Below, in pieces: positions 12,535-60,075 of a stretch of DNA of 64,000 nucleotides (positions are counted from its first letter, which is position 1; each line of letters starts with the position of its first letter). Source of the DNA: Patescibacteria group bacterium. Lineage in GTDB: Bacteria > Patescibacteriota > Patescibacteriia > UBA9570. The stretch lies in NCBI GenBank assembly GCA_024277435.1, contig JAJRVJ010000028.1, positions 97,300 to 161,299 on the forward strand, in the 5' to 3' direction. The notes beneath the pieces are model-generated. The model did not search any database. It saw only the letters and a list, made by a program, of their open reading frames with translations, and had not been told where the DNA came from. Position numbers and translations under genes: made by a program.

Positions 12535-13104
12535 ATGAACGAGCACGATAAATTAGTAGGAGGAGAGGCTATCGAGCAGGGCATCAAGCCAATGGAGCTA
12601 ACGAGAGATGAGAGAGCAGTGTTAGTGGAGATGGATTTTAATGTGAATAATACTGTTACGGTACATGAAACCAGTATTGAATTTTGGACACTTCAAGAGG
12701 ATGATAATTTTAAGCCAAACTTAGAAGTACCTCTTACACAGATTCGGCTTGCAAATGAAAGGATTAGTCTAGCTATCGAGCGTATTGCAGCGGCTCTGCC
12801 AAAGCTTCAGGTCCACACTAATCCAGTTATTAGAGCATTACATCAACCTGTAGCAAATACTCTATCTATATTGCGGCGCGTTCATACTATTGGTATGGAG
12901 CTTGAAGTAAATATGGCCGCAAACCTTGAGTTTGAATATAGTGAAACATCTCCATTGGTAAGTAAATTTAATGGGTTTGCAGAAGAGTTACAGGCGTTAA
13001 TGATATCTGTGGAATCTGATATGATGGCGGTACAAAATAACTCAGCCTATAAAGCATATAGAGATCGCGGTGAATCATTACGTGGTACAATAGAATGGAT
13101 ATGA
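12535..13104 (+). CDS. Hypothetical protein embedded in the aromatic operon. No recognisable family.
   Basis: 189-aa ORF between aroC and pheA, same strand, overlapping the pheA start by 10 nt. Host-like codon usage. Confidence 0.55.
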   Translation: MNEHDKLVGGEAIEQGIKPMELTRDERAVLVEMDFNVNNTVTVHETSIEFWTLQEDDNFKPNLEVPLTQIRLANERISLAIERIAAALPKLQVHTNPVIRALHQPVANTLSILRRVHTIGMELEVNMAANLEFEYSETSPLVSKFNGFAEELQALMISVESDMMAVQNNSAYKAYRDRGESLRGTIEWI

Positions 13105-14635: not shown

Positions 14636-14669
14636 CTACATCTCTTGTGGATAATTATACTCGTTTTTA

Positions 14670-14698
14670 TTGACACATATTTCTGAATGCGATATGTT
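14670..14698 (+). promoter_or_regulatory. sigma70-like promoter (TTGACA-17-TATGTT) reading into the non-coding region
   Basis: Consensus -35 and 4/6 -10 with 17-nt spacer, directly after the operon end. Confidence 0.35.
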
Positions 14699-15128
14699 GT
14701 TACTAAGTATTATGAATAGTAAAAAATCTTTTAACTTAATCCACAAGATTTGGAACACAACACTCCTCGTGAAGATGGTGTGTGTTTATGTTGTCACTAC
14801 AATTCGACGCACAAATTACGGGTTAAGTTCTATGAGCCATATATAGATTAAAAGATATTAAGGCAAATAACGAACGAAGCCCGCAAAAACAGTGGGATTT
14901 TTTATACGCCTAGACCAGTTTCTGAAACGTTGGAAATTACTCTAGCCGGATAAAACCGGTAAGTTAGCTCTTTACATGTGTATACCATCATTGTTATGCA
15001 ATGGCGATATAACATCAACGTATGGTCAATGAATGCATTGGCCTTATGGCAACGTGATCTTTGATCGTAACCATCTAACTTATATGTTCTTGGTCGCTCA
15101 ATGTATTTATAGTATATATGCATATTGA

Positions 15129-15206
15129 GCGGCTGGGAACCTTAAGCCACATGGAGTGGGCCTTCTTTGACAATGAAGGTGACGGGTTCGATTCCCCTCG
15201 GTCGCA
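15129..15206 (+). ncRNA. tRNA-like element of 78 nt: a 7-bp acceptor stem (two G-U pairs), a canonical T-arm GGGTTCGATTCCC, a discriminator A, and a non-canonical D/anticodon region. It is a degenerate tRNA, a tRNA 3' remnant, or a tRNA-like end of a longer ncRNA.
   Basis: gcggctg (15129-35) pairs with cggtcgc (15199-205). T-arm ACGGG-TTCGATT-CCCCT has one C-C mismatch. The best internal hairpin, ccttc/gaagg, has a 9-nt loop. An intrinsic terminator overlaps the 3' end. Confidence 0.3.
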
Positions 15207-15222
15207 CGAATCGTGCTTTTAT
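15204..15222 (+). terminator. intrinsic terminator (gcacg-aat-cgtgc followed by a T-run)
   Basis: 5-bp GC stem followed by TTTTAT. Confidence 0.55.
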
Positions 15223-15327
15223 AGTGTAGAGAAGAAATCTCCACTATGAAAAGCTTTGAGGGTGGGTACATTCCCACACAGATATTGACTTCGGTCACCA
15301 TCTGTGGAGCACAAGTATCACGTTGCC

Positions 15328-15383
15328 CCCTTCCCAGTGTGTATCTTACTTAATGTAAGTACTAGGTACACACTGTTCAAGGG
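15328..15383. repeat. 56-nt imperfect nested palindrome (ccctt/aaggg, ccagtgtgta/tacacactg, cttac/gtaag)
   Basis: Three concentric inverted-repeat pairs, visible by eye, in an AT-rich non-coding region. Confidence 0.5.
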
Positions 15384-15529
15384 ATTGTATTATCATTACA
15401 ACCATTATGAATTATTCAGGGAAACAACTTATTCTTATTGTGCTTAACCTCGTGATTAATATCACGCTGGGATCTTTATGGTTTAAAAAAGAAATGTAGA
15501 TTGATATTTTCTTCAATAACCCTAAAGAT

Positions 15530-15556
15530 CCCCGCGCGATAAACGTGGGGTTTTTT
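15530..15556 (+). terminator. intrinsic terminator (ccccgcg-cgataaa-cgtgggg followed by TTTTTT) at the left edge of GC-rich island A
   Basis: 7-bp stem including one G-U pair, followed by a T6 run. Confidence 0.6.
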
Positions 15557-15721
15557 CATTTAGGCTAATTCTCTGATCTCCCTCTCCTGAAAGGATGGGG
15601 GTCGGAGGAGGGGTCGATCAATGAATCGGTGGTGCTTATATGAGGCGCCAATAGGGTGCCTCAATAGGCATAAATCCACCAATTGTTCTTTACAGATGAT
15701 GAGTATGCAATACGATTCGAG

Positions 15722-15762
15722 GAAGCGCTGTATGGACTACACCGATGTCCATACAGCGCTTC
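15722..15762. promoter_or_regulatory. perfect 16-bp inverted repeat (GAAGCGCTGTATGGAC-N9-GTCCATACAGCGCTTC) upstream of the island A ORF; candidate operator or 5' leader structure
   Basis: The arms are exact reverse complements. Sits 53 nt upstream of ATG 15815 and is followed by direct repeats gcgcatc(t)gcgcatc. Confidence 0.5.
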
Positions 15763-15814
15763 CCGCGCATCTGCGCATCTTCATCTAACCCCGAAGACCC
15801 CTCAAGGAGGTCCT

Positions 15815-16213
15815 ATGTCGAGCAGCCTGCTCTCCAATCGTCCCGATTTCGCCATGCGCACTCGCGGTGGCCAGCGCCTGGCGTTCCACACCAGCGGTGG
15901 CGTCACCATGGCCTTCAGCCCCGCCACCAGTCAGCCCGTGCGCGCCCGCCTTGTCAGCGAGAAGGGTAACTCAAACGGTTGGCACCTAGTTGGTACTGCC
16001 GAGTTCGATGCGATGGCCACGCTCTACGGGCTGGTCAATGCCTTCGGCTCCTGGTGCCTGCGTGTCGTCCGCTTCGGCGTGGAGATGCTGGTGGACCTCA
16101 CTGCTCGTCACCTGGTGTGTGGTCGCTACGAAGGCGATGACGACTGGGTCAAGCTCGAGGCCGAGGGCTTCTGTGAGCTGGTGCGCGCGTACAACAACAT
16201 GTGCGCCGTCTGA
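15815..16213 (+). CDS. hypothetical protein (133 aa) in GC-rich island A
   Basis: ATG preceded by the strong SD AAGGAGG (7 nt upstream). About 65% GC with GC3-rich codons, unlike the host. A 12-bp GC hairpin follows the stop. Confidence 0.55.
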   Translation: MSSSLLSNRPDFAMRTRGGQRLAFHTSGGVTMAFSPATSQPVRARLVSEKGNSNGWHLVGTAEFDAMATLYGLVNAFGSWCLRVVRFGVEMLVDLTARHLVCGRYEGDDDWVKLEAEGFCELVRAYNNMCAV

Positions 16214-16230
16214 TGAGATGTTTTCGGGGA

Positions 16231-16266
16231 GAAGCGGTGGTGTGGTTCTAAGCCCACCACCGCTTC
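16231..16266 (+). terminator. GC-rich hairpin terminator (gaagcggtggtg...caccaccgcttc) after the island A ORF
   Basis: 12-bp perfect stem with no U-tract (high-GC-organism style). Confidence 0.5.
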
Positions 16267-16287
16267 GCAACCGCTACTGAAATGCTA

Positions 16288-16316
16288 TTGCAACACTTCA
16301 AAAATTTTCTTATAAT
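16288..16316 (+). promoter_or_regulatory. sigma70 promoter TTGCAA-17-TATAAT
   Basis: Near-consensus hexamers with 17-nt spacing, 40 nt upstream of ATG 16356. Confidence 0.55.
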
Positions 16317-19230: not shown

Positions 19231-19268
19231 AAAAAGTAGATGCATGCCATGGCATGCATCTACTTTTT
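19231..19268. terminator. 38-bp perfect palindrome AAAAAGTAGATGCATGCCATGGCATGCATCTACTTTTT (bidirectional intrinsic terminator / repeat)
   Basis: Exact reverse-complement symmetry with an A-run and a T-run flanking. A related core, GCATGTCATGGCATGC, recurs at 23404-23423. Confidence 0.6.
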
Positions 19269-20587: not shown

Positions 20588-20608
20588 TAATATAATTCTC
20601 AGTAAAAC

Positions 20609-20645
20609 AAAACAGCTCTCTTAAATAATTTAAGAGAGCTGTTTT
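20609..20645. terminator. palindromic terminator aaaacagctctcttaaa-taa-tttaagagagctgtttt
   Basis: 17-bp perfect arms with an A-run and a T-run flanking, directly after stop 20587. Confidence 0.6.
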
Positions 20646-20651
20646 GTAGTT

Positions 20652-20698: not shown

Positions 20699-20754
20699 TA
20701 ACGGACGCGAGTTGTAGCAAGCGTCCGTCCACCGAACTCCCCCTGGGAGCATGT

Positions 20755-21168
20755 TCAGATGATCTTGTGCTGTCTCCTGACGGAGGCAGCGACGACGTGG
20801 TCCAGTGCTTCCGCGCAGTTGCGCCAGGCGGTGCCGCTCACCACCACGATCTGGCCCTTGTTGGCGGAAGCAACGATCACGTCGGCGTCGCGCATCATTC
20901 CATCGACGTATAGGCTGTGGAATCCTACGGGCAGGAGGCCGGAGTCGATCAGGACCCGGATCCTCTCCTGACTACCGGACTTGCGCGGCAGGTTGGTCTG
21001 GACGGTGACACCCGGACCCAGGAAGTAGAGCTTCCCGTCGCTGGAGGTGTCAGCAGTGATGATCTTCTGACCGCGGCGGACGGTCAGCACCGATGCCCCT
21101 TCGGACACCAGGTGCTTCGCCGCAGCCTCGGAGAAGCCCAGTTGTTGCAGGATCTGTTCTGCTGTCAT
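20755..21168 (-). CDS. stand-alone cyclic-nucleotide-binding (CAP/CRP-type cNMP-binding) domain protein, 137 aa, with no effector or HTH domain
   Basis: Pattern VRRGQKIITADTSSDGKLYFLGPGVTVQT ... GLLPVGFHSLYVDGMMRDADVIVAS resembles the beta-roll plus phosphate-binding cassette (G-E-L...R-A). GC-rich. SD GAGGGAG upstream on the minus strand. Confidence 0.45.
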   Translation of the reverse strand: MTAEQILQQLGFSEAAAKHLVSEGASVLTVRRGQKIITADTSSDGKLYFLGPGVTVQTNLPRKSGSQERIRVLIDSGLLPVGFHSLYVDGMMRDADVIVASANKGQIVVVSGTAWRNCAEALDHVVAASVRRQHKII

Positions 21169-21382
21169 AGTTCTCCCTCGGATTGTTCCATGACAATCCT
21201 ATTCGGTGTGTACATATTTAATAGCATTATGAGTATTTTGTACATATCTATTGAAGTACTACTGAATATATTTTACTTGACAAAATACCCCAATAATTGG
21301 AAAATGATGTGCTCGCAGGACTAGTTTCCTGCTTGCGTTCCTTGAAAAATGGCACATGCCACTAACGTCATGAGGTCTCCAC
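21169..21382. promoter_or_regulatory. AT-rich divergent promoter region inside GC-rich island B, containing TTGACA-like hexamers and the palindrome TGGCACATGCCA (21350-21361)
   Basis: A local GC drop to below 35% between two divergently oriented GC-rich genes. The 12-bp palindrome sits 22 nt upstream of the cyclase ATG. Confidence 0.45.
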
Positions 21383-23332
21383 ATGTCTGATACCAATCTG
21401 CGTGGGGCCCTCCGTGATGTGGGCTCTGCAAACGCCGTTGCTACGGTTGTGGCGGTTGAGGCGGAAGAACTGCAGCGGAAGTTGCCTAAAGGCACGCTGG
21501 TCGAGCGTCTCTGGCACCAGGTTTTCATGCCGGAAGGCTGGAAGACCAAGGATCTACTGAAGCGCACCATGCCCCTGCTCACCTGGGTCGCCGTGGAGCG
21601 GAACCTGTTCCGCATTTTCGGTAATCCCCAGGCTGCTGCGAAGGCGGTGGCTGCCAAGGCCGCTACGGCGGACTTCGGTGGCTTGGAGTTGGCGGACTGG
21701 TTCCGTTGGCTTCTGCGGCTGTTCGTGCCGCCCAGTTTCGTGTTCGCCTCAATCATCCCGCGGCTGATGCCCAAGTTCAACACCCTGAAGCGAGTCACTC
21801 TCGTGGAAGAAGATGACAACCACGTCATCTATCGGGTGCAGTACATGAACAAGAGCGGTAAGCAGACGCACGATCCTCACGAGGATATGGGTTCCCGTGT
21901 CTGGTTCGAGACGGCCATGACGGCTGGCGCGGCCAAGTACTGGTTCCCAGACGCTGCGCGGGTAGTACACCACGTGTTGGAGTTGGACCTCGTCCAGTAC
22001 CTCCAGCACTTCACTGAGTTCATGCCTGGCACCACCTTCTACCGGTCCGGTGGTACGCTGCGTATGCGCGCTACCGATGCGCGGCCCGACGTCATGGATA
22101 CGGTAGTGGCCACTCAAGTTCAGCTTCGGCCGGATGATGACGGCTTCTACACCGTCGTTGCCACTCAGGAAGACCTGAACATGGGCTTCGACACTCGCCT
22201 TGGCTGGCGGGTGGAGCGTGATATTGCGGCAGTGGACGCCATGGGTGAAACCTGGCAGCCCGTCGCTAGTGGAACGATCTTCTGCGCTGGAGCCAAGTGC
22301 TCGCTCACCGAGTACAACTGGCGTCCGCAGACAATCGCTCTGCGCGCGGTGTTCCGGTTCGCGGTGTTCTGCATCAAGCTGCTCGGTGGAAGCTTCACTG
22401 GCGCCGCTAGGTTGGCCGAAGCCAAGACGAACATGGCTGAGCTGGCTGCCGAGCGTGATAACGCTCTGGGTGACGCCGAGCGTGAACGTGCGCTCCGCCA
22501 GGAGATGGACAAAGATCACTTCCCGACGGAACAGATCGCTACGGCGATGCGTGAGCAGGCGTTCAGCCCGCGTCAGCTCTTCGGAGCGTTGCTGTTCTTC
22601 GATCTCGGCGATAGCACGGCTGCTAACGAGCGTCTTCCGAACTACGCGGATTTGCTCCAGCAGTTCATGGATGCCATCGATGCCGTTATGGTGCGCTACC
22701 GTGAGGGAGCGCGTGAAGACGGTGTCGTAGGATTCACGGTCTCGGAGCCGGGCGATGCTCGCCTCATGATCTTCTCGCGGCGCTGGAATGAGCACCACCA
22801 GACTATGGACGAGGCCGTTGCCCGCGATTAGCTCGCGGTGGCCATTGCGGTGGCCACGGAGATCTTCGCGATCTTCAACCAGGTGTTCAATGTTCCTGGC
22901 GGCCCCAGCTGCGTGCGCATCGGCATTCACTACGGCGAGTTCAAGCTCGATCGCCGTGGTGCCAGCAAGAGCCGTGCTCAGTGTTACGGCGATACCACGA
23001 ACACCGTCGCTCGTTTGGAGGCGGCCGGTAAGTTGCCTGGCGTAGCGGCCGGTGACCTGCGCACCGTGGTGCTGATGGCGAGCGTGGCCGAACTGGTGGC
23101 AGACAGTCACGAGTTCGTGCCGGTCGGCACACAGACCTTCAAGGGTGTCTCCGGACACCATGAGGTCGTGCGGCTGCTGCTGCCTGGTCAGCAGGGCGTT
23201 CGTCGCCTCAAGGACTTCACCGAGGAGATCAAAACCTTGCCGGACGTCGCAATCCAGCAGTTGGGGCCAGCGGACGCCAACCGTGAACTCCTCGACGAAC
23301 TCCTCGATGAGTTCGTCAGCGAAGCAGAGTAG
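21383..23332 (+). pseudogene. Sensor class III nucleotidyl (adenylyl/guanylyl) cyclase: an N-terminal domain of about 390 aa of unknown type, a coiled-coil linker and a cyclase catalytic domain. It is interrupted by an in-frame TAG at 22829-22831.
   Basis: Cyclase motifs FFDLGDST, EPGDARLMIF, VRIGIHYGEF and YGDTTNTVARLE are split across ORFs 21383-22831 and 22838-23332, both in the same frame. About 62% GC. Confidence 0.6.
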
Positions 23333-23336
23333 CGCT

Positions 23337-23375
23337 CTACCCGGTCGTGCACCTAACAAGTGCGCGGCCGGGTAG
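23337..23375 (+). terminator. GC-rich hairpin terminator (ctacccggtcg...cggccgggtag) after the cyclase
   Basis: 11-bp stem with one G-U pair, enclosing an inner gcac/gtgc hairpin. Confidence 0.5.
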
Positions 23376-23388
23376 GGTAGGAGGATTT

Positions 23389-23441
23389 AGCCCCCTAGTG
23401 TGGGTGCATGTCATGGCATGCACTAAAACATTCAGGGGGCT
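23389..23441. repeat. nested palindrome agccccct...[GTGCATGTCATGGCATGCAC]...agggggct at the right junction of island B
   Basis: Outer 8-bp and inner 7-bp inverted repeats. The inner core is related to the 19231-19268 palindrome. Confidence 0.5.
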
Positions 23442-54880: not shown

Positions 54881-54953
54881 GGGACGTTAGCTCAGTTGGT
54901 AGAGCAGCAGCCTTTTAAGCTGATGGTCACTGGTTCAAATCCAGTACGTCCCA
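54881..54953 (+). tRNA. tRNA-Lys (anticodon TTT), CCA not encoded
   Basis: Cloverleaf with acceptor gggacgt/acgtccc, D-arm gctc-agttggta-gagc, anticodon loop cTTTTaa, T-arm actgg-ttcaaat-ccagt, and discriminator A. Confidence 0.85.
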
Positions 54954-58282: not shown

Positions 58283-58392
58283 AAATTGACCAGATGCGTA
58301 ATACGCGATAAGCTTCTCGATACTTTATACGCCTCGGGGGAGTGCGTATATGTTTGACATTTTGGGTACAGCTTCATACAAGGAGCTGAAAA

Positions 58393-58716
58393 GTGCCTAC
58401 ACCGGAACGTCCGGCGGTGCTGATTCATTCAGCTACCGCAGAAATATACGAGTTCCTGCCAACTCGTGATCGGCAGCGGCGACAAGACTCTCTCGCTCAG
58501 TTACAACTACTCAAGCAGCTGCTGCAGCGCCTCACAAGCAACGACATTACTCTGTCGCGTGCAGGGGAGTTGATTGTGAGACCCAACTTGGCGAGGCGCC
58601 GGCTGAGGGAGAATCCTCATAATCTGACGCACTACTGGGCAGCACGCTATAGTCGCTGCACTAACTGGGCTATGCTGCAATATGTTTTGCGCCTGTGCGC
58701 ACTATGCCCGGCATAG
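58393..58716 (+). CDS. hypothetical protein (107 aa), first ORF of GC-rich island C
   Basis: SD AGGAGC followed by GTG. GC-rich codon usage. Preceded by TTGACA-like promoter 58345-58375. Overlaps the next ORF by 22 nt in another frame. Confidence 0.4.
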   Translation: MPTPERPAVLIHSATAEIYEFLPTRDRQRRQDSLAQLQLLKQLLQRLTSNDITLSRAGELIVRPNLARRRLRENPHNLTHYWAARYSRCTNWAMLQYVLRLCALCPA

Positions 58717-58901
58717 ATCATTTGGTTGGCGAGTTGAATCGGGCTGGTCATCCGTTGCGTGAGCAAGTGCGACGCGCTCGGTTTGCTACTGATGTGCGCA
58801 TGCTACTCGCTGCGACGCGTCGCCTTACGGAGGCGCACCACCCGGCTGGAGCTGGTAGGCTTGTGGCTTGGCTCACTGGAGCTAAAGTGGAGGTGCCGTA
58901 G
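58695..58901 (+). CDS. hypothetical protein (68 aa), overlapping partner of the preceding ORF (possible two-gene module or frameshifted single gene)
   Basis: GC-rich ORF. Followed by hairpin cttggag-tag-ctccaag (58902-58918). Confidence 0.35.
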   Translation: MRTMPGIDHLVGELNRAGHPLREQVRRARFATDVRMLLAATRRLTEAHHPAGAGRLVAWLTGAKVEVP

Positions 58902-58977
58902 CTTGGAGTAGCTCCAAGAATGTTCAAGCGCCTTCTGAGTTCATCCCAGAACTTAGAAGGCAATAGGACAATACTCA

Positions 58978-59076
58978 TTGACTTTTTATTAAAATATAGT
59001 ACACTCGTGGCGCCTGTTAATTAGGCGTTCTTTACAATTAGGAGGAATTATCGTGAAGTTGAACGTATACTCGTAG
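58978..59076 (+). promoter_or_regulatory. promoter TTGACT-16-TACACT, then imperfect IR ggcgcct/aggcgtt, strong SD AGGAGG and a 7-codon mini-ORF (GTG-KLNVYS-stop, 59053-59076); candidate leader-peptide control region for the 176-aa ORF
   Basis: Hexamers at 58978-83 and 59000-05. SD 59040-45. GTG 59053. TAG 59074-76. Confidence 0.35.
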
Positions 59077-59194
59077 GTCACGGGTGCGGCAAATAGTGTG
59101 GTTTATACATGCGCATTACTTGCTACATCCGTGGCCACAAAAAAGAGTGGAGACGCTCTGATCTGTGTATCCCCCAAAAAAAGGTAGGTAAGTC

Positions 59195-59725
59195 ATGAGC
59201 ACCCCGCTCAGCATCATTCTCGGCAACTCTGTTGTCGGCCCCATCGTTCCCGTCCGCGTCGTCGAGACCGTGGATCCGCGGGTCTCGATTCACTTCAAGG
59301 ACGGCATCGTCCTCAACCTCGTCGGCCTCACCGCCGAGGAGCGCGATGGCTTCGACGAGACCGGGATCAACTGGCACGACGACATCGAGGACAGCGGAGC
59401 GCTGCTCCACCGCGACATGGGCGTCCTGTTCGACCGCAGCGGGATGACCAACCTGCGGCAGGGCGGTGAGCCCCACCCCGACCCCCGTGTTCGCCAGCAG
59501 GACTGGCAGAACACCGTGAGTTCGGTTACCGTCACCACGGGCGCCGGCCCCTACGGGCTGCTGGTGGCCCTCTGCGCCGCCGGCTGGGGACCCGCCATCA
59601 GCTCCCGGATCGACGTGGTCGGCCACATGCGGATGGCCGTGGGCAGCCGGGACTCCGCAGAGCTGGCCCGCTACGTGGGCGGGGCCTTCCGCTCCAGCGG
59701 ACGGAAGTACGTCCGGGTCGCCTAG
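59195..59725 (+). CDS. hypothetical protein (176 aa), GC-rich island C
   Basis: ATG with upstream AGGTAGG. About 65% GC. Followed by GC hairpin 59764-59802. Confidence 0.5.
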   Translation: MSTPLSIILGNSVVGPIVPVRVVETVDPRVSIHFKDGIVLNLVGLTAEERDGFDETGINWHDDIEDSGALLHRDMGVLFDRSGMTNLRQGGEPHPDPRVRQQDWQNTVSSVTVTTGAGPYGLLVALCAAGWGPAISSRIDVVGHMRMAVGSRDSAELARYVGGAFRSSGRKYVRVA

Positions 59726-59856
59726 AGCGCGCTGAAGAAGCGCAGGATCTACGGTTCAACTTCACGCCCCCTTCAATCGTGTATGCGAGGGAAGGGGGAA
59801 CGTGATCTTTCTAGATTAGATAAATAGTCTACAGAGAATACGTAAAATTTGCAGAG

Positions 59857-59884
59857 TTGACATATTCATAATTTTCCCTAAATA
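59857..59884 (+). promoter_or_regulatory. sigma70 promoter TTGACA-16-TAAATA upstream of the 60-aa ORF
   Basis: Consensus -35 and A/T-rich -10. Confidence 0.4.
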
Positions 59885-59892
59885 GTCGCGTT

Positions 59893-60075
59893 GTGCATTA
59901 CAACATAGTGAAGCGTCCCGCTGGCCTTCCGATAAAACTTCTCATGCAGCGGGTCTTCGGGCCGCTGGCGAAGGGAGATCCCCTCAAGCGAGACGTCGAG
60001 AAGAGGCGCCTAGGTAAGGTCACCCGCAACATGACCTCCGCCCTCAACACCAGTCGAGGTCTCCAGGAACTGTAA
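59893..60075 (+). CDS. small basic hypothetical protein (60 aa)
   Basis: GTG-start ORF, moderately GC-rich, between island C and asnS. Confidence 0.3.
   Translation: MHYNIVKRPAGLPIKLLMQRVFGPLAKGDPLKRDVEKRRLGKVTRNMTSALNTSRGLQEL

Follow-up and report, generated by a model that had tools for sequence, protein, structure and literature searches.

To our knowledge, non-decoding mimics of tRNA in bacteria are few, comprising tmRNA, the Y RNAs and, in T-box systems, the ligand side. All of them led to new biology. The bacterial small RNA YrlA contains a non-decoding domain that mimics the D arm, T arm and acceptor of tRNA; in M. smegmatis the acceptor of YrlA has 7 bp, and the RNA is cleaved by RNase P and acquires CCA (PMC4201824). 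Relative to tRNA, YrlA is circularly permuted, and it carries a Ro60-binding helix with the GNCGAA motif and adjoins rsr (PMC4201824). The allo-tRNA family is characterized by a 9/3 branch, a long V-arm and G73 or U73 (PMC5389517).

Here, a 78-nt element from the 64-kb stretch of DNA that was analysed (the window) is compared with these systems. We propose, with moderate confidence and from two sequences, that it is a conserved, structured, non-decoding tRNA mimic carried in a small accessory cassette. If true, the CPR bacteria, which are little studied and cannot be cultured, would offer a further mimic of distinct structure and with it a handle on their RNA processing or regulation, and a mutually exclusive hairpin would add interest. 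The module is presented as a lead and not as a discovery, since it is represented by two sequences only and the case is sequence-based.

Results

A predicted cloverleaf with a tRNA-type 3' end

The first-pass annotation had described a tRNA-like module of 78 nt at 15129 to 15206, and both the position, on the plus strand, and the wording were borne out. The element was supported by a homologue in a related uncultured bacterium of the CPR type (L049), in which it recurs with the cloverleaf kept, by the minimum free energy (MFE) structure of the window copy and by the RNAalifold consensus of the two copies. In this consensus, predicted de novo, a 9-bp acceptor closes a cloverleaf whose D-like hairpin is short and whose anticodon-like and T hairpins have 7 and 3 bp, respectively. 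In this fold the acceptor strands occupy 15129 to 15137 and 15197 to 15205, followed by the discriminator A15206, which was present as claimed. Between them lie a connector (15138 to 15146), the D-like hairpin (15147 to 15159), the anticodon-like hairpin (15160 to 15180) and the T hairpin with the core GGGTTCGATTCCC (15184 to 15196). The anticodon-like hairpin, with 7 bp and a 7-nt loop, adjoins the D-like hairpin without a spacer and is separated from the T hairpin by a 3-nt connector, GAC (15181 to 15183). The hairpin with a 9-nt loop that had been named as the best internal one was confirmed, at 15160 to 15180. When the window copy was folded in isolation, the cloverleaf was its MFE structure and accounted for 55% of the ensemble; the folding energy of the module in the window gave a z value of only -1.7.

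The 7-bp acceptor helix noted previously was confirmed (GCGGCTG/CGGTCGC, including two G-U pairs), as was the absence of a G3-U70 pair, position 3-70 being G-C with the G-U falling at 4-69 (A-U in L049). The T arm had been called canonical, but its reading as a 5-bp stem contains a C.C mismatch. The 7/5 division between acceptor and T stem includes this mismatch, whereas the 9/3 division is fully paired, and in it the 9-bp acceptor stacked on the 3-bp T hairpin would give a 12-bp branch as in tRNA. Both copies can form the pairs involved, 8-71 (G-U) and 9-70 (G-C), but neither pair differs between them, so that no covariation distinguishes the 9/3 from the 7/5 reading. The features of canonical tRNA that are present include a discriminator, a T arm and an acceptor helix of 7 bp, while the connector has 9 nt (11 in the 7/5 reading) versus 2 and the variable region has 3 nt versus 4 to 5. 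The D-like loop has 4 to 5 nt, and U8 and A14 are missing. CCA is encoded neither in the module nor in the window's own tRNA-Lys.

A filter requiring a T arm and then an adjacent 7-bp acceptor was run over 1.56 Mb of real sequence and over shuffled sequence. Seven matches were obtained in the real sequence, six of them genuine tRNAs and the seventh the module; shuffled sequence gave 0.75 matches per 1.56 Mb, equivalent to ∼0.06 expected for the 64-kb window. The filter is specific for tRNAs. The module ends at its 3' side in the same 23 nt as genuine genes for tRNA Gly-UCC and Arg-CCG found elsewhere, and a JGI pattern scan with the element matched only ordinary tRNAs of unrelated organisms.

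Conservation of the module in one relative

The homologue was located at 435 to 513 of L049, in the same syntenic place (blastn E value, 9e-5); L058 is the adjoining upstream contig from the same sample. BLAST and tblastx searches of the tract against the closest relatives (L001, L002 and L042) returned nothing, and while only these three were compared the tract looked like unique junk. The L049 homologue surfaced only after the set of syntenic contigs had been widened.

The module was the conservation peak of the tract between the window and L049. Changes on both sides of a stem pair were observed at 5-74 (C-G to U-A) and 37-49 (U-A to G-U) (n = 2), four further pairs were changed on one side with pairing kept, and one pair was broken. 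Across the module alignment 97.8% of cells were paired, versus 42 to 58% with slid partners, while a shuffle control on pairing, made with the two sequences, gave 120/500 and was not significant. By eye, the D-like hairpin showed a C-G to G-C swap that was hidden by an alignment gap column. A covariation between the D-like loop and the T loop resembling G19-C56 of tRNA (G..C in the window, U..A in L049) was likewise seen by eye and was picked post hoc; G18 and U55 are invariant between the copies. The most strongly conserved stretch, GGTGACGGGTT..A.TCCCCTCG.TCGCACGA, was kept in sequence and not in pairing alone. When the L049 copy was folded on its own, a rod-like fold was favoured by 4.4 kcal/mol.

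A covariance model built on the two members (window 15129 to 15206 and L049 435 to 513) scored 94.7 and 101 bits on them, and a search with it found no further copies. At least six of the syntenic relatives lack the module, also when searched without filters, and it is therefore dispensable or mobile. Exact or degenerate patterns of the element gave either no matches in viral contigs or chance matches that the covariance model rejected, BLAST of the whole gap against phages and plasmids gave no match, and a JGI metagenome scan using the ATP-grasp protein gave no relatives.

Two of the origins proposed in the first-pass annotation were a degenerate tRNA and a tRNA 3' fragment left at an attachment (att) site, that is, a decaying pseudogene or an integration scar beside GC-rich DNA. 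Such an origin would account for the 3' 23 nt shared with genuine tRNAs and for the negative scans for known families, and the slot is indeed variable, with foreign-looking GC-rich cassettes. Decay is difficult to reconcile with 84% identity and compensated stems kept between genomes whose neighbouring proteins are 62 to 67% identical, with synonymous sites saturated by inference and the flanking intergenic DNA near background. As for an att scar, conservation extends beyond the 3' part to the internal hairpins and the 5' strand, and searches for another copy of the 3' 22 nt in the 64-kb window at ≤3 mismatches, among direct repeats and in viral contigs were negative. An adjacent integrase-like ORF is absent, and relatives without the module also hold GC-rich cassettes in the slot. 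We consider an origin by decay or integration very improbable and retain the reading of a conserved tRNA mimic.

Scans for known RNA families

The ARAGORN and Rfam scans suggested in the first-pass annotation were run; the known families were negative, and the comparative evidence still supports a structured conserved RNA. Over the whole window, ARAGORN with default settings identified only the tRNA-Lys at 54881 and no tmRNA, and Rfam at gathering thresholds likewise returned only tRNA-Lys. Runs of ARAGORN with introns allowed, in tmRNA mode or with lowered thresholds gave nothing credible, and in bacterial mode the element was called only at -ps70, a setting that yields 8 junk calls in 2.1 kb. 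A search upstream for an intact tRNA 5' half, as a sign of a split tRNA or of one with an intron, was negative. The Rfam tRNA and tRNA-Sec models remained unreported even at an E value of ≤10 on 106 nt, and permissive Rfam scans gave sub-threshold matches only (miRNA-like families to hairpins, a 13-nt tmRNA match and a Tymovirus tRNA-like match). The tmRNA match was local, covering 13 nt of the T hairpin with 10.9 bits versus a gathering score of 47 bits. The Tymovirus-type model, RF00233, scored 26.9 bits on L049 (E value of 5e-4 in a 191-nt search) and 14.9 to 15.8 bits on the window, with a gathering threshold of 40. These sub-threshold scores are an independent sign of the D/anticodon/T layout.

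An alternative is that the module is a functional non-canonical tRNA which is aminoacylated, either for translation or as an amino-acid donor, and whose enlarged connector defeats the standard finders. Consistent with this, the cloverleaf has the 12-bp acceptor/T branch, the discriminator A and, like the tRNA-Lys of the window, no encoded CCA, and contacts between 18/19 and 55/56 are possible. The window loop, UUGACAA, would provide U33, a valine anticodon GAC and A37, and ARAGORN in mitochondrial mode called the window copy as tRNA-Val(gac). The L049 copy, however, has the loop CCGGCAC, with C33 and the triplet GGC in place of GAC, lacks C56, and gave no ARAGORN call even in relaxed or mitochondrial mode. 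The 7-nt loop of the window copy closes only via a U.U pair. The 9-nt connector, the 3-nt variable region and the missing U8 and A14 also argue against a tRNA, as do the silence of default ARAGORN and of the Rfam tRNA and tRNA-Sec models and the lack of the module in most relatives. Since the anticodon-like loop differs between the two copies, the module is not a decoding tRNA, and we regard a working tRNA of any kind as quite unlikely beside the non-decoding mimic proposed here.

A competing hairpin at the 5' end of the module

A hairpin designated H1, with arms at 15087 to 15103 and 15125 to 15141 of the plus strand (17 to 19 bp, four of them G-U), takes up the 5' acceptor strand and so excludes the acceptor helix. 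It is more stable on the plus strand, where the four G-U pairs form. In L049 the equivalent is a 19-bp hairpin at 396 to 440, which sequesters that copy's own 5' acceptor strand and differs in its inner sequence. Compared with an enforced cloverleaf, the H1 fold was more stable by 14 kcal/mol in the window and 9 kcal/mol in L049. The upstream arm of H1 is nearly a repeat of the 3' acceptor strand (CTTGGTCGC / CTCGGTCGC).

An intrinsic terminator had been reported to overlap the 3' end of the element. The overlap was observed, with a hairpin GCACGAATCGTGC followed by TTTTAT at 15204 to 15220 (plus strand) that includes the last 3 nt of the module, but this hairpin is weak and only terminator-like. 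In the MFE structure it coexists with H1; enforcing the cloverleaf abolishes it. The T-run of L049 begins only ∼40 nt beyond the module, so that the overlap is not conserved. Directly after the T-run of the window is a 14-bp hairpin (15217 to 15251, plus strand), with an 11-bp counterpart in the same relative place in L049 (GAGGTGGTATA...TATACCACCTC). No convincing conserved promoter for the module was found.

The dominance of H1 by 9 to 14 kcal/mol in both genomes raises the question of whether the likeness to tRNA is incidental. H1 and a conserved single-stranded 3' segment could instead serve a small ORF downstream, whether as its leader, as an attenuator or by binding a protein, or the conserved bases could be a DNA site such as a recombination site or an operator. 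The near repeat between the upstream arm and the 3' acceptor strand would fit such a function, as would the most conserved stretch, kept in sequence and not in pairing alone, and the co-occurrence of module and small ORF in 2/2 genomes. On the other hand, the compensated 5-74 pair requires the 3' strand as partner, the internal hairpins stay paired with differing sequences, and the identity of the 3' end to that of genuine tRNAs is left unexplained. An incidental likeness is thus given an appreciable but minor probability, and selection on a tRNA-like structure is preferred.

Organization of the surrounding tract

The cassette containing the module lies in a variable slot located between the chorismate mutase gene and an ATP-grasp/M20 gene. 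The first part of the 0.9-kb tract is a separate unit, TU1. The promoter-like sequence TTGACA-17-TATGTT at 14670 to 14698 (plus strand; 10/12 matches) had been described as reading towards the element; the site is there, but it does not read into the element, as the TU1 terminator lies between them at 14880 to 14902 (plus strand; CCCGCAAAAACAGTGGG and then ATTTTTT). Immediately downstream of the chorismate mutase gene, both promoter boxes (TTGACA and -10) and a subsequent AAGTTATATGA-like start region can be aligned across six related genomes, and the CCCGC-loop-GCGGG-TTTTT motif of the terminator aligned in 6/6. Because this conserved terminator precedes the module, the 14670 promoter was assigned to a unit of its own. 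The same terminator contradicts the earlier option that the element is the tRNA-like 3' end of a ∼500-nt RNA, and the element lies near the 5' side of its own unit. TU1 contains a 44-codon ORF (14712 to 14846, plus strand) whose coding status is uncertain. An ATG at the matching place opens 40 to 45 codons in every relative; the proteins of L055, L057 and L042 are alike (E values of 1e-16 to 1e-4), unlike those of the window, L049 and L001.

Downstream of the module, a hairpin with a UUCG tetraloop (15277 to 15306, plus strand) is followed by the block ATCACGTTGCC (15317 to 15327, plus strand), which is complementary to 15048 to 15058 and forms an 11-bp long-range helix with it in the MFE structure. 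The 11-mer, within which TCACGTTGCCC is common to L049, recurs at approximately L049 683, with no upstream partner seen there. The nested palindrome reported at 15328 to 15383 is present on the plus strand but spans approximately 15335 to 15375.

It had been stated that no ORF is plausible in this tract. Apart from the TU1 ORF, a small ORF encoding a 30-aa hydrophobic peptide (MNYSGKQLILIVLNLVINITLGSLWFKKEM) was identified at 15407 to 15499 (plus strand), and it is shared with L049 at 795 to 878 (MPQFKNTILIIINILVVITSGSLHMKR). The two were reciprocal best tblastn matches (E value of 0.002) in the same relative place, with five synonymous differences in identical residues and replacements of the V/I/L type. 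The small ORF has no SD motif, which is normal here because only 2/35 native genes carry one. A promoter-like site was also seen on the opposite strand within this region (15411 to 15384). The second terminator of the first-pass annotation, at 15530 to 15556 (plus strand), was confirmed as a strong intrinsic terminator of the small-ORF unit; together with a hairpin at 15460 to 15541 it has a counterpart at approximately L049 845 to 930, with compensated stem changes. In both genomes the cassette has the order H1, module, T-run, further hairpins, ∼30-aa ORF and terminator, and the module and the small ORF are both absent elsewhere.

Two other interpretations of the tract were rejected. A single large structured RNA (15040 to 15560; z = -9.2) was discarded, as other intergenic junctions at GC patches were equally hairpin-rich and most of the hairpins are unconserved. 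An integron attC array was discarded because R'/R'' motifs are absent from the tract. Beyond the tract, the GC-rich DNA noted previously was confirmed, with GC rising from approximately 15560 to 15600. This patch, island A (15560 to 16300, plus strand), contains an ORF at 15815 to 16213 preceded by AAGGAGG; it had no Pfam, PHROG or NCBIfam match and no homologue in the protein collection. Relatives without the module hold GC-rich cassettes in the same slot.

Discussion

The module illustrates a caution for annotation, in that tRNA and Rfam scans were blank and yet one relative shows selection on structure. In the mechanism that we propose, the module would be transcribed on the plus strand and its 5' acceptor strand would pair alternatively, either with the upstream arm in H1, predicted to be the more stable state, or with the 3' strand in the cloverleaf. 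Because H1 is more stable, the cloverleaf would form only once the upstream arm is removed or a factor is bound. When H1 forms in the window, the 3' strand may be freed for the small terminator, giving an attenuator-like layout (1:2/3:4 versus 2:3); any control of the downstream peptide gene by this switch is conjecture. Handling of the tRNA type as for YrlA (RNase P and CCA) would fix the termini of a small RNA or shield them.

The downstream peptide recalls type I toxin-antitoxin systems, which also have a peptide of ∼30 aa with one hydrophobic helix and a basic C terminus, a hairpin-rich predicted transcript and an accessory slot; the promoter-like site on the opposite strand at 15411 to 15384 adds to the resemblance. 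The small ORF at 15407 to 15499 can be likened to type I toxins by analogy, being known here from its peptide character and its conservation in L049. We know of no type I locus that carries a tRNA-like domain, and a literature search found none.

Among the bacterial mimics, tmRNA likewise combines an acceptor helix and T arm without a canonical D stem, and a short ORF lies within the module's tract. The module differs in having no G3-U70 pair, pseudoknots or tag-type ORF, and both of its acceptor strands lie within 78 nt, whereas those of tmRNA end an RNA of ∼360 nt. Unlike YrlA, the module is unpermuted and has neither a Ro60-type helix nor an Rfam match, and its neighbours are aro/phe/tyr and ATP-grasp/M20 genes, not rsr. 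Like the allo-tRNAs it has a longer anticodon-type stem and, in L049, a D-like stem with a tetraloop, and it may have their 9/3 acceptor/T branch (12 bp). It differs in its variable region of 3 nt, in A73, in the 9 nt that connect acceptor and D-like hairpin and in an anticodon that is not conserved.

In both genomes Rfam matched best with the Tymovirus-type tRNA-like structure (RF00233), in which tRNA is mimicked without decoding. In that structure the acceptor is a 3' pseudoknot and in the module it is an ordinary 5'/3' helix; the viral element stands at the 3' end of plant-virus RNA, whereas the module is located in a bacterial chromosome and its valine anticodon is not conserved. In both, a short D-like hairpin directly adjoins a hairpin of 7 bp, and 3 nt connect the latter to a short T hairpin, each of these last two having a loop of 7 nt. 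A speculative and rather improbable extension of this likeness would make the module the cellular equivalent of the tRNA-like structures of viruses. It would then enter tRNA maturation and charging (RNase P, CCA addition and perhaps valylation, for which the window copy has A35, C36 and A73), the H1/cloverleaf switch would couple this pathway to the expression or stability of the cassette, and the module would represent a new class of bacterial mimic, unrelated to tmRNA and Y RNA.

The tRNA-like element and its detectability by RNA models

The 78-nt element at 15129 to 15206 (+ strand), within the noncoding tract at about 14636 to 15560, agreed in sequence with its first-pass description. Its ends, GCGGCTG and CGGTCGC, form a 7-bp pairing that includes two G-U pairs, the T-arm core GGGTTCGATTCCC lies at 15184 to 15196, A15206 directly follows the helix, and the G3-U70 pair is absent. 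A tRNA and noncoding RNA scan of the whole window with ARAGORN and the Rfam curated thresholds returned only a tRNA-Lys at 54881. Permissive Rfam scans of the tract gave no tRNA, tmRNA, RNase P, 6S, or SRP; they matched the tmRNA T-loop over 13 nt and, weakly, tRNA-like families. In bacterial mode, ARAGORN reported the element only at a 70% threshold, together with eight junk calls in 2.1 kb.

The real sequence of the window and 41 loci (1.56 Mb, both strands) was filtered for a TTCRANN loop with G-C closing and at least 4/5 stem pairs, followed immediately by a 7-mer fully paired with a 7-mer 66 to 95 nt upstream. Seven matches were obtained, comprising six genuine tRNAs and the element, compared with 0.75 matches per 1.56 Mb of shuffled sequence and ∼0.06 expected in the window. 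The last 23 nt of the element were identical to the 3' ends of real tRNA-Gly(UCC) and tRNA-Arg(CCG) genes that belong to unrelated organisms in metagenomes. Therefore, the 3' part of the element is ordinary tRNA sequence.

A second copy and a predicted shared cloverleaf

Similarity searches with the tract found nothing in the closest relatives; the syntenic contig L049 (Logan sample SRR22387796) does match it, window 15178 to 15212 aligning to L049 485 to 519 (E 9e-5). Another contig from this sample, L058, spans the aro genes and ends at chorismate mutase, which places L049 and L058 side by side in a single genome. The copies were 84% identical across the whole element, while the rest of the intergenic gap aligned at roughly background level and the neighboring proteins were merely 62 to 67% identical.

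Both copies can form a 9-bp acceptor (15129 to 15137 with 15197 to 15205 in the window), a conserved 9-nt connector (AACCUUAAG), a D-like hairpin of 4 to 5 bp with a loop of 4 to 5 nt, and, with zero spacer, an anticodon-like hairpin of 6 to 7 bp with a loop of 7 to 9 nt, followed by GAC and a 3-bp hairpin bearing a 7-nt T-loop. The acceptor/T branch amounts to 12 bp whether read as 9/3 or 7/5, but the 7/5 reading contains a C.C mismatch that the two copies share. The cloverleaf was the single-sequence MFE structure of the window copy, accounting for 55% of the ensemble, and RNAalifold recovered an identical four-helix cloverleaf from the alignment alone.

Differences between the copies were located in loops or compensated. 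In the acceptor, C-G in one copy corresponds to U-A in the other at pair 5-74, G-U alternates with a Watson-Crick pair at 4-75 and at 6-73, and the long internal hairpin has one two-sided change (U-A to G-U) and two one-sided changes. By eye, the short hairpin also has a C-G swapped for G-C, masked by an alignment gap column. Only one pair was broken, a U.U in the window, and 97.8% of cells were paired, against 42 to 58% when the 3' partners were slid by 1 to 3 columns. The shuffle control gave 120/500, a comparison in which two sequences cannot give significance, and this limit weakens the case more than any other.

The T-loop reads UUCGAUU in the window, against UUAAACU in L049. Where C56 of the T-loop becomes A, the second G of the D-like loop GG becomes U, which would preserve a 19-56 type pair; because it was spotted post hoc, this covariation is only suggestive. 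The anticodon-like loop differs at five positions (UUGACAA in the window, CCGGCAC in L049). ARAGORN in mitochondrial mode called the element tRNA-Val(gac). A decoding tRNA is unlikely, given the variable anticodon loop, the C33 of L049, the long connector, and the failure of all tRNA models.

An upstream hairpin competing with the cloverleaf

In both genomes, an arm 20 to 30 nt upstream of the element complements the 5' acceptor strand and is a near-repeat of the 3' acceptor strand (CTTGGTCGC at 15090 against CTCGGTCGC at 15197 in the window; CTCGGTCGC against CTCGATCGC in L049). The resulting hairpin, H1 (15087 to 15141), is 17 to 19 bp long in the two genomes, with unrelated inner sequences. 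In the window it is stronger on the + strand because of four G-U pairs, and folding windows over 15040 to 15189 gave −38.5 to −41.9 kcal/mol on that strand against about −30 kcal/mol on the other. Folding with the upstream arm present favored H1 over the enforced cloverleaf by 14 kcal/mol in the window and 9 kcal/mol in L049; the cloverleaf therefore requires that the arm be untranscribed or removed or that a factor intervene. An alternative is that the working form is H1 plus a conserved single strand.

A small terminator hairpin at 15204 to 15216 in the window is compatible with H1 and excluded by the cloverleaf, a predicted layout that is attenuator-like. In L049 the T-run lies ∼40 nt further on, so the terminator part of this layout is not conserved.

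Transcription signals and small ORFs in the tract

A consensus scan recovered the TTGACA-17-TATGTT promoter at 14670, the weak hairpin and T-run at 15204 to 15220 overlapping the 3' end of the element, and the strong terminator at 15530 to 15556, and added an overlooked terminator at 14880 to 14896. The promoter had been read as directed towards the element, but it belongs to a separate unit, TU1, with its own terminator. In TU1 (∼200 nt), the promoter is accompanied by a conserved AAGTTATATGA-like start, an ACGCGGGTTA block, and a CCCGC...GCGGG-TTTTT terminator, and the content of the unit is an ORF of 40 to 45 codons or an sRNA. It lies directly 3' of chorismate mutase in six genomes, including genomes without the tRNA-like module (window 14640 to 14905, L049 92 to 348, L001 10961 to 11200, L042 5483 to 5730, L055 8135 to 8398, and L057 8150 to 8402). 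Protein-level conservation of the ORF was clear only among three relatives. No Rfam family matched TU1 at threshold, and a weak Trp_leader match (18.8 bits) is probably due to chance.

No ORF had been considered plausible in the tract, but a 30-aa hydrophobic ORF at 15407 to 15499 is the reciprocal best match of a 27-aa ORF at the equivalent relative place in L049 (795 to 878), with several synonymous differences. A hairpin and terminator 3' of this ORF are also common to both. Since just 2/35 native window genes carry a Shine-Dalgarno sequence, its absence is no objection. The 27- to 30-aa peptide has a basic C terminus and type I toxin-like character, and its ORF lies just 5' of the terminator at 15530 to 15556; an opposite-strand promoter-like site lies nearby at 15411 to 15384.

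Trained on the two module copies, a covariance model scored these members at 94.7 and 101 bits. It found nothing in L001, L002, L042, L048, L050 to L055, or L057, even with filters off, and nothing in viral contigs preselected by degenerate patterns. Thus, the module occurs together with the small hydrophobic ORF in two genomes, and the others lack both.

The syntenic slot and GC-rich patches

At least seven relatives retain the order aroC, unknown ORF, pheA, tyrA, chorismate mutase, gap, ATP-grasp/M20. The nearest relatives of the 864-aa ATP-grasp/M20 neighbor are 49 to 68% identical and labeled Patescibacteria group, and names among the TyrA relatives include Candidatus Kerfeldbacteria. The ORF between chorismate synthase and prephenate dehydratase (170 to 440 aa; window 12535 to 13104, same position in L001, L042, L048, L050, L055, and L057) is always present in the clade, has no Pfam match, and may be an unrecognized member of the aromatic amino acid pathway.

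The gap measures 1.7 kb in the window and 1.4 to 3.4 kb in relatives, and usually contains patches of 55 to 70% GC in genomes of 37 to 50% GC. In three relatives that lack the module, this slot holds another conserved hairpin block together with a GC-rich ORF. The block (...GGGGTGGGTACATGTGCAT...GTAGAGACGCAT-AGCA-ATGCGTCTCTAC...CACCCACCCC; L042 5760 to 5890, L055 8450 to 8600, L057 8455 to 8600) precedes this conserved + strand ORF (MCIPAPD.../MCLPEPS...), for which gene callers chose the wrong strand; the 12-mer GGGTGGGTACAT is common to these relatives and the window (15259 to 15270).

Patches of this composition were found at 15560 to 16300, 20700 to 23400, and 58300 to 60000 in the window and in L042 (5800 to 8000 and 12200 to 15000), L048 (5400 to 8000), L053 (1 to 1000), and L057 (8600 to 9100). 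Nearly all their ORFs have a Shine-Dalgarno sequence (AAGGAGG, GAGGGAG, GGAAGGAG, and similar), against 2/35 native window genes, and by composition and translation signals the patches look foreign. One ORF (21383 to 22831) is 54% identical to L042 12929 to 14842 in the same syntenic place after an aminotransferase gene; Pfam, PHROG, and NCBIfam searches gave no match for the pair, and both copies are 60 to 68% GC although the housekeeping neighbors are just 62 to 68% identical. At the end of the second patch, the ORF at 22838 to 23332 matches part of an adenylate/guanylate cyclase catalytic domain (profile positions 98 to 149 of 183) and may be a gene fragment.

The folding energy of 15040 to 15560 was very low (z = −9.2); this is not special, because junctions beside other GC-rich patches are equally hairpin-rich (z of −8 to −9.6, both strands). 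Perfect or near-perfect palindromes with arms of 16 to 20 nt (15721 to 15763, 19231 to 19268, 20607 to 20647, and 23337 to 23375) are positioned 3' of genes and at patch edges.

Interpretation and comparison with known tRNA-like structures

The observation of the 78-nt element is real, and the label tRNA-like stands; the origins proposed with it (degenerate tRNA, attachment-site remnant, or tRNA-like 3' end of a ∼500-nt noncoding RNA) were unsupported. A second copy of the element's 3' end, as expected of att duplication, was not found within the window. A neutral pseudogene or att scar would leave unexplained the conservation exceeding that of neighboring genes, the compensated stems, and the conserved 5' half.

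The evidence best supports reading the element as a tRNA-mimic RNA domain inside a small accessory cassette. The module would be transcribed and then handled by enzymes recognizing the acceptor/T branch, with H1 gating this handling. With its two copies, the element represents a candidate new family of tRNA-like RNAs.

Among known structures, the Tymovirus tRNA-like Rfam model scored 26.9 bits on L049 (E 5e-4, 191-nt search) and ∼15 bits on the window, short of its 40-bit threshold. The alignment covers exactly the D-like, anticodon-like, and T hairpins; unlike that of the model, the acceptor of the element is not a pseudoknot. The likeness is taken as architectural resemblance rather than membership.
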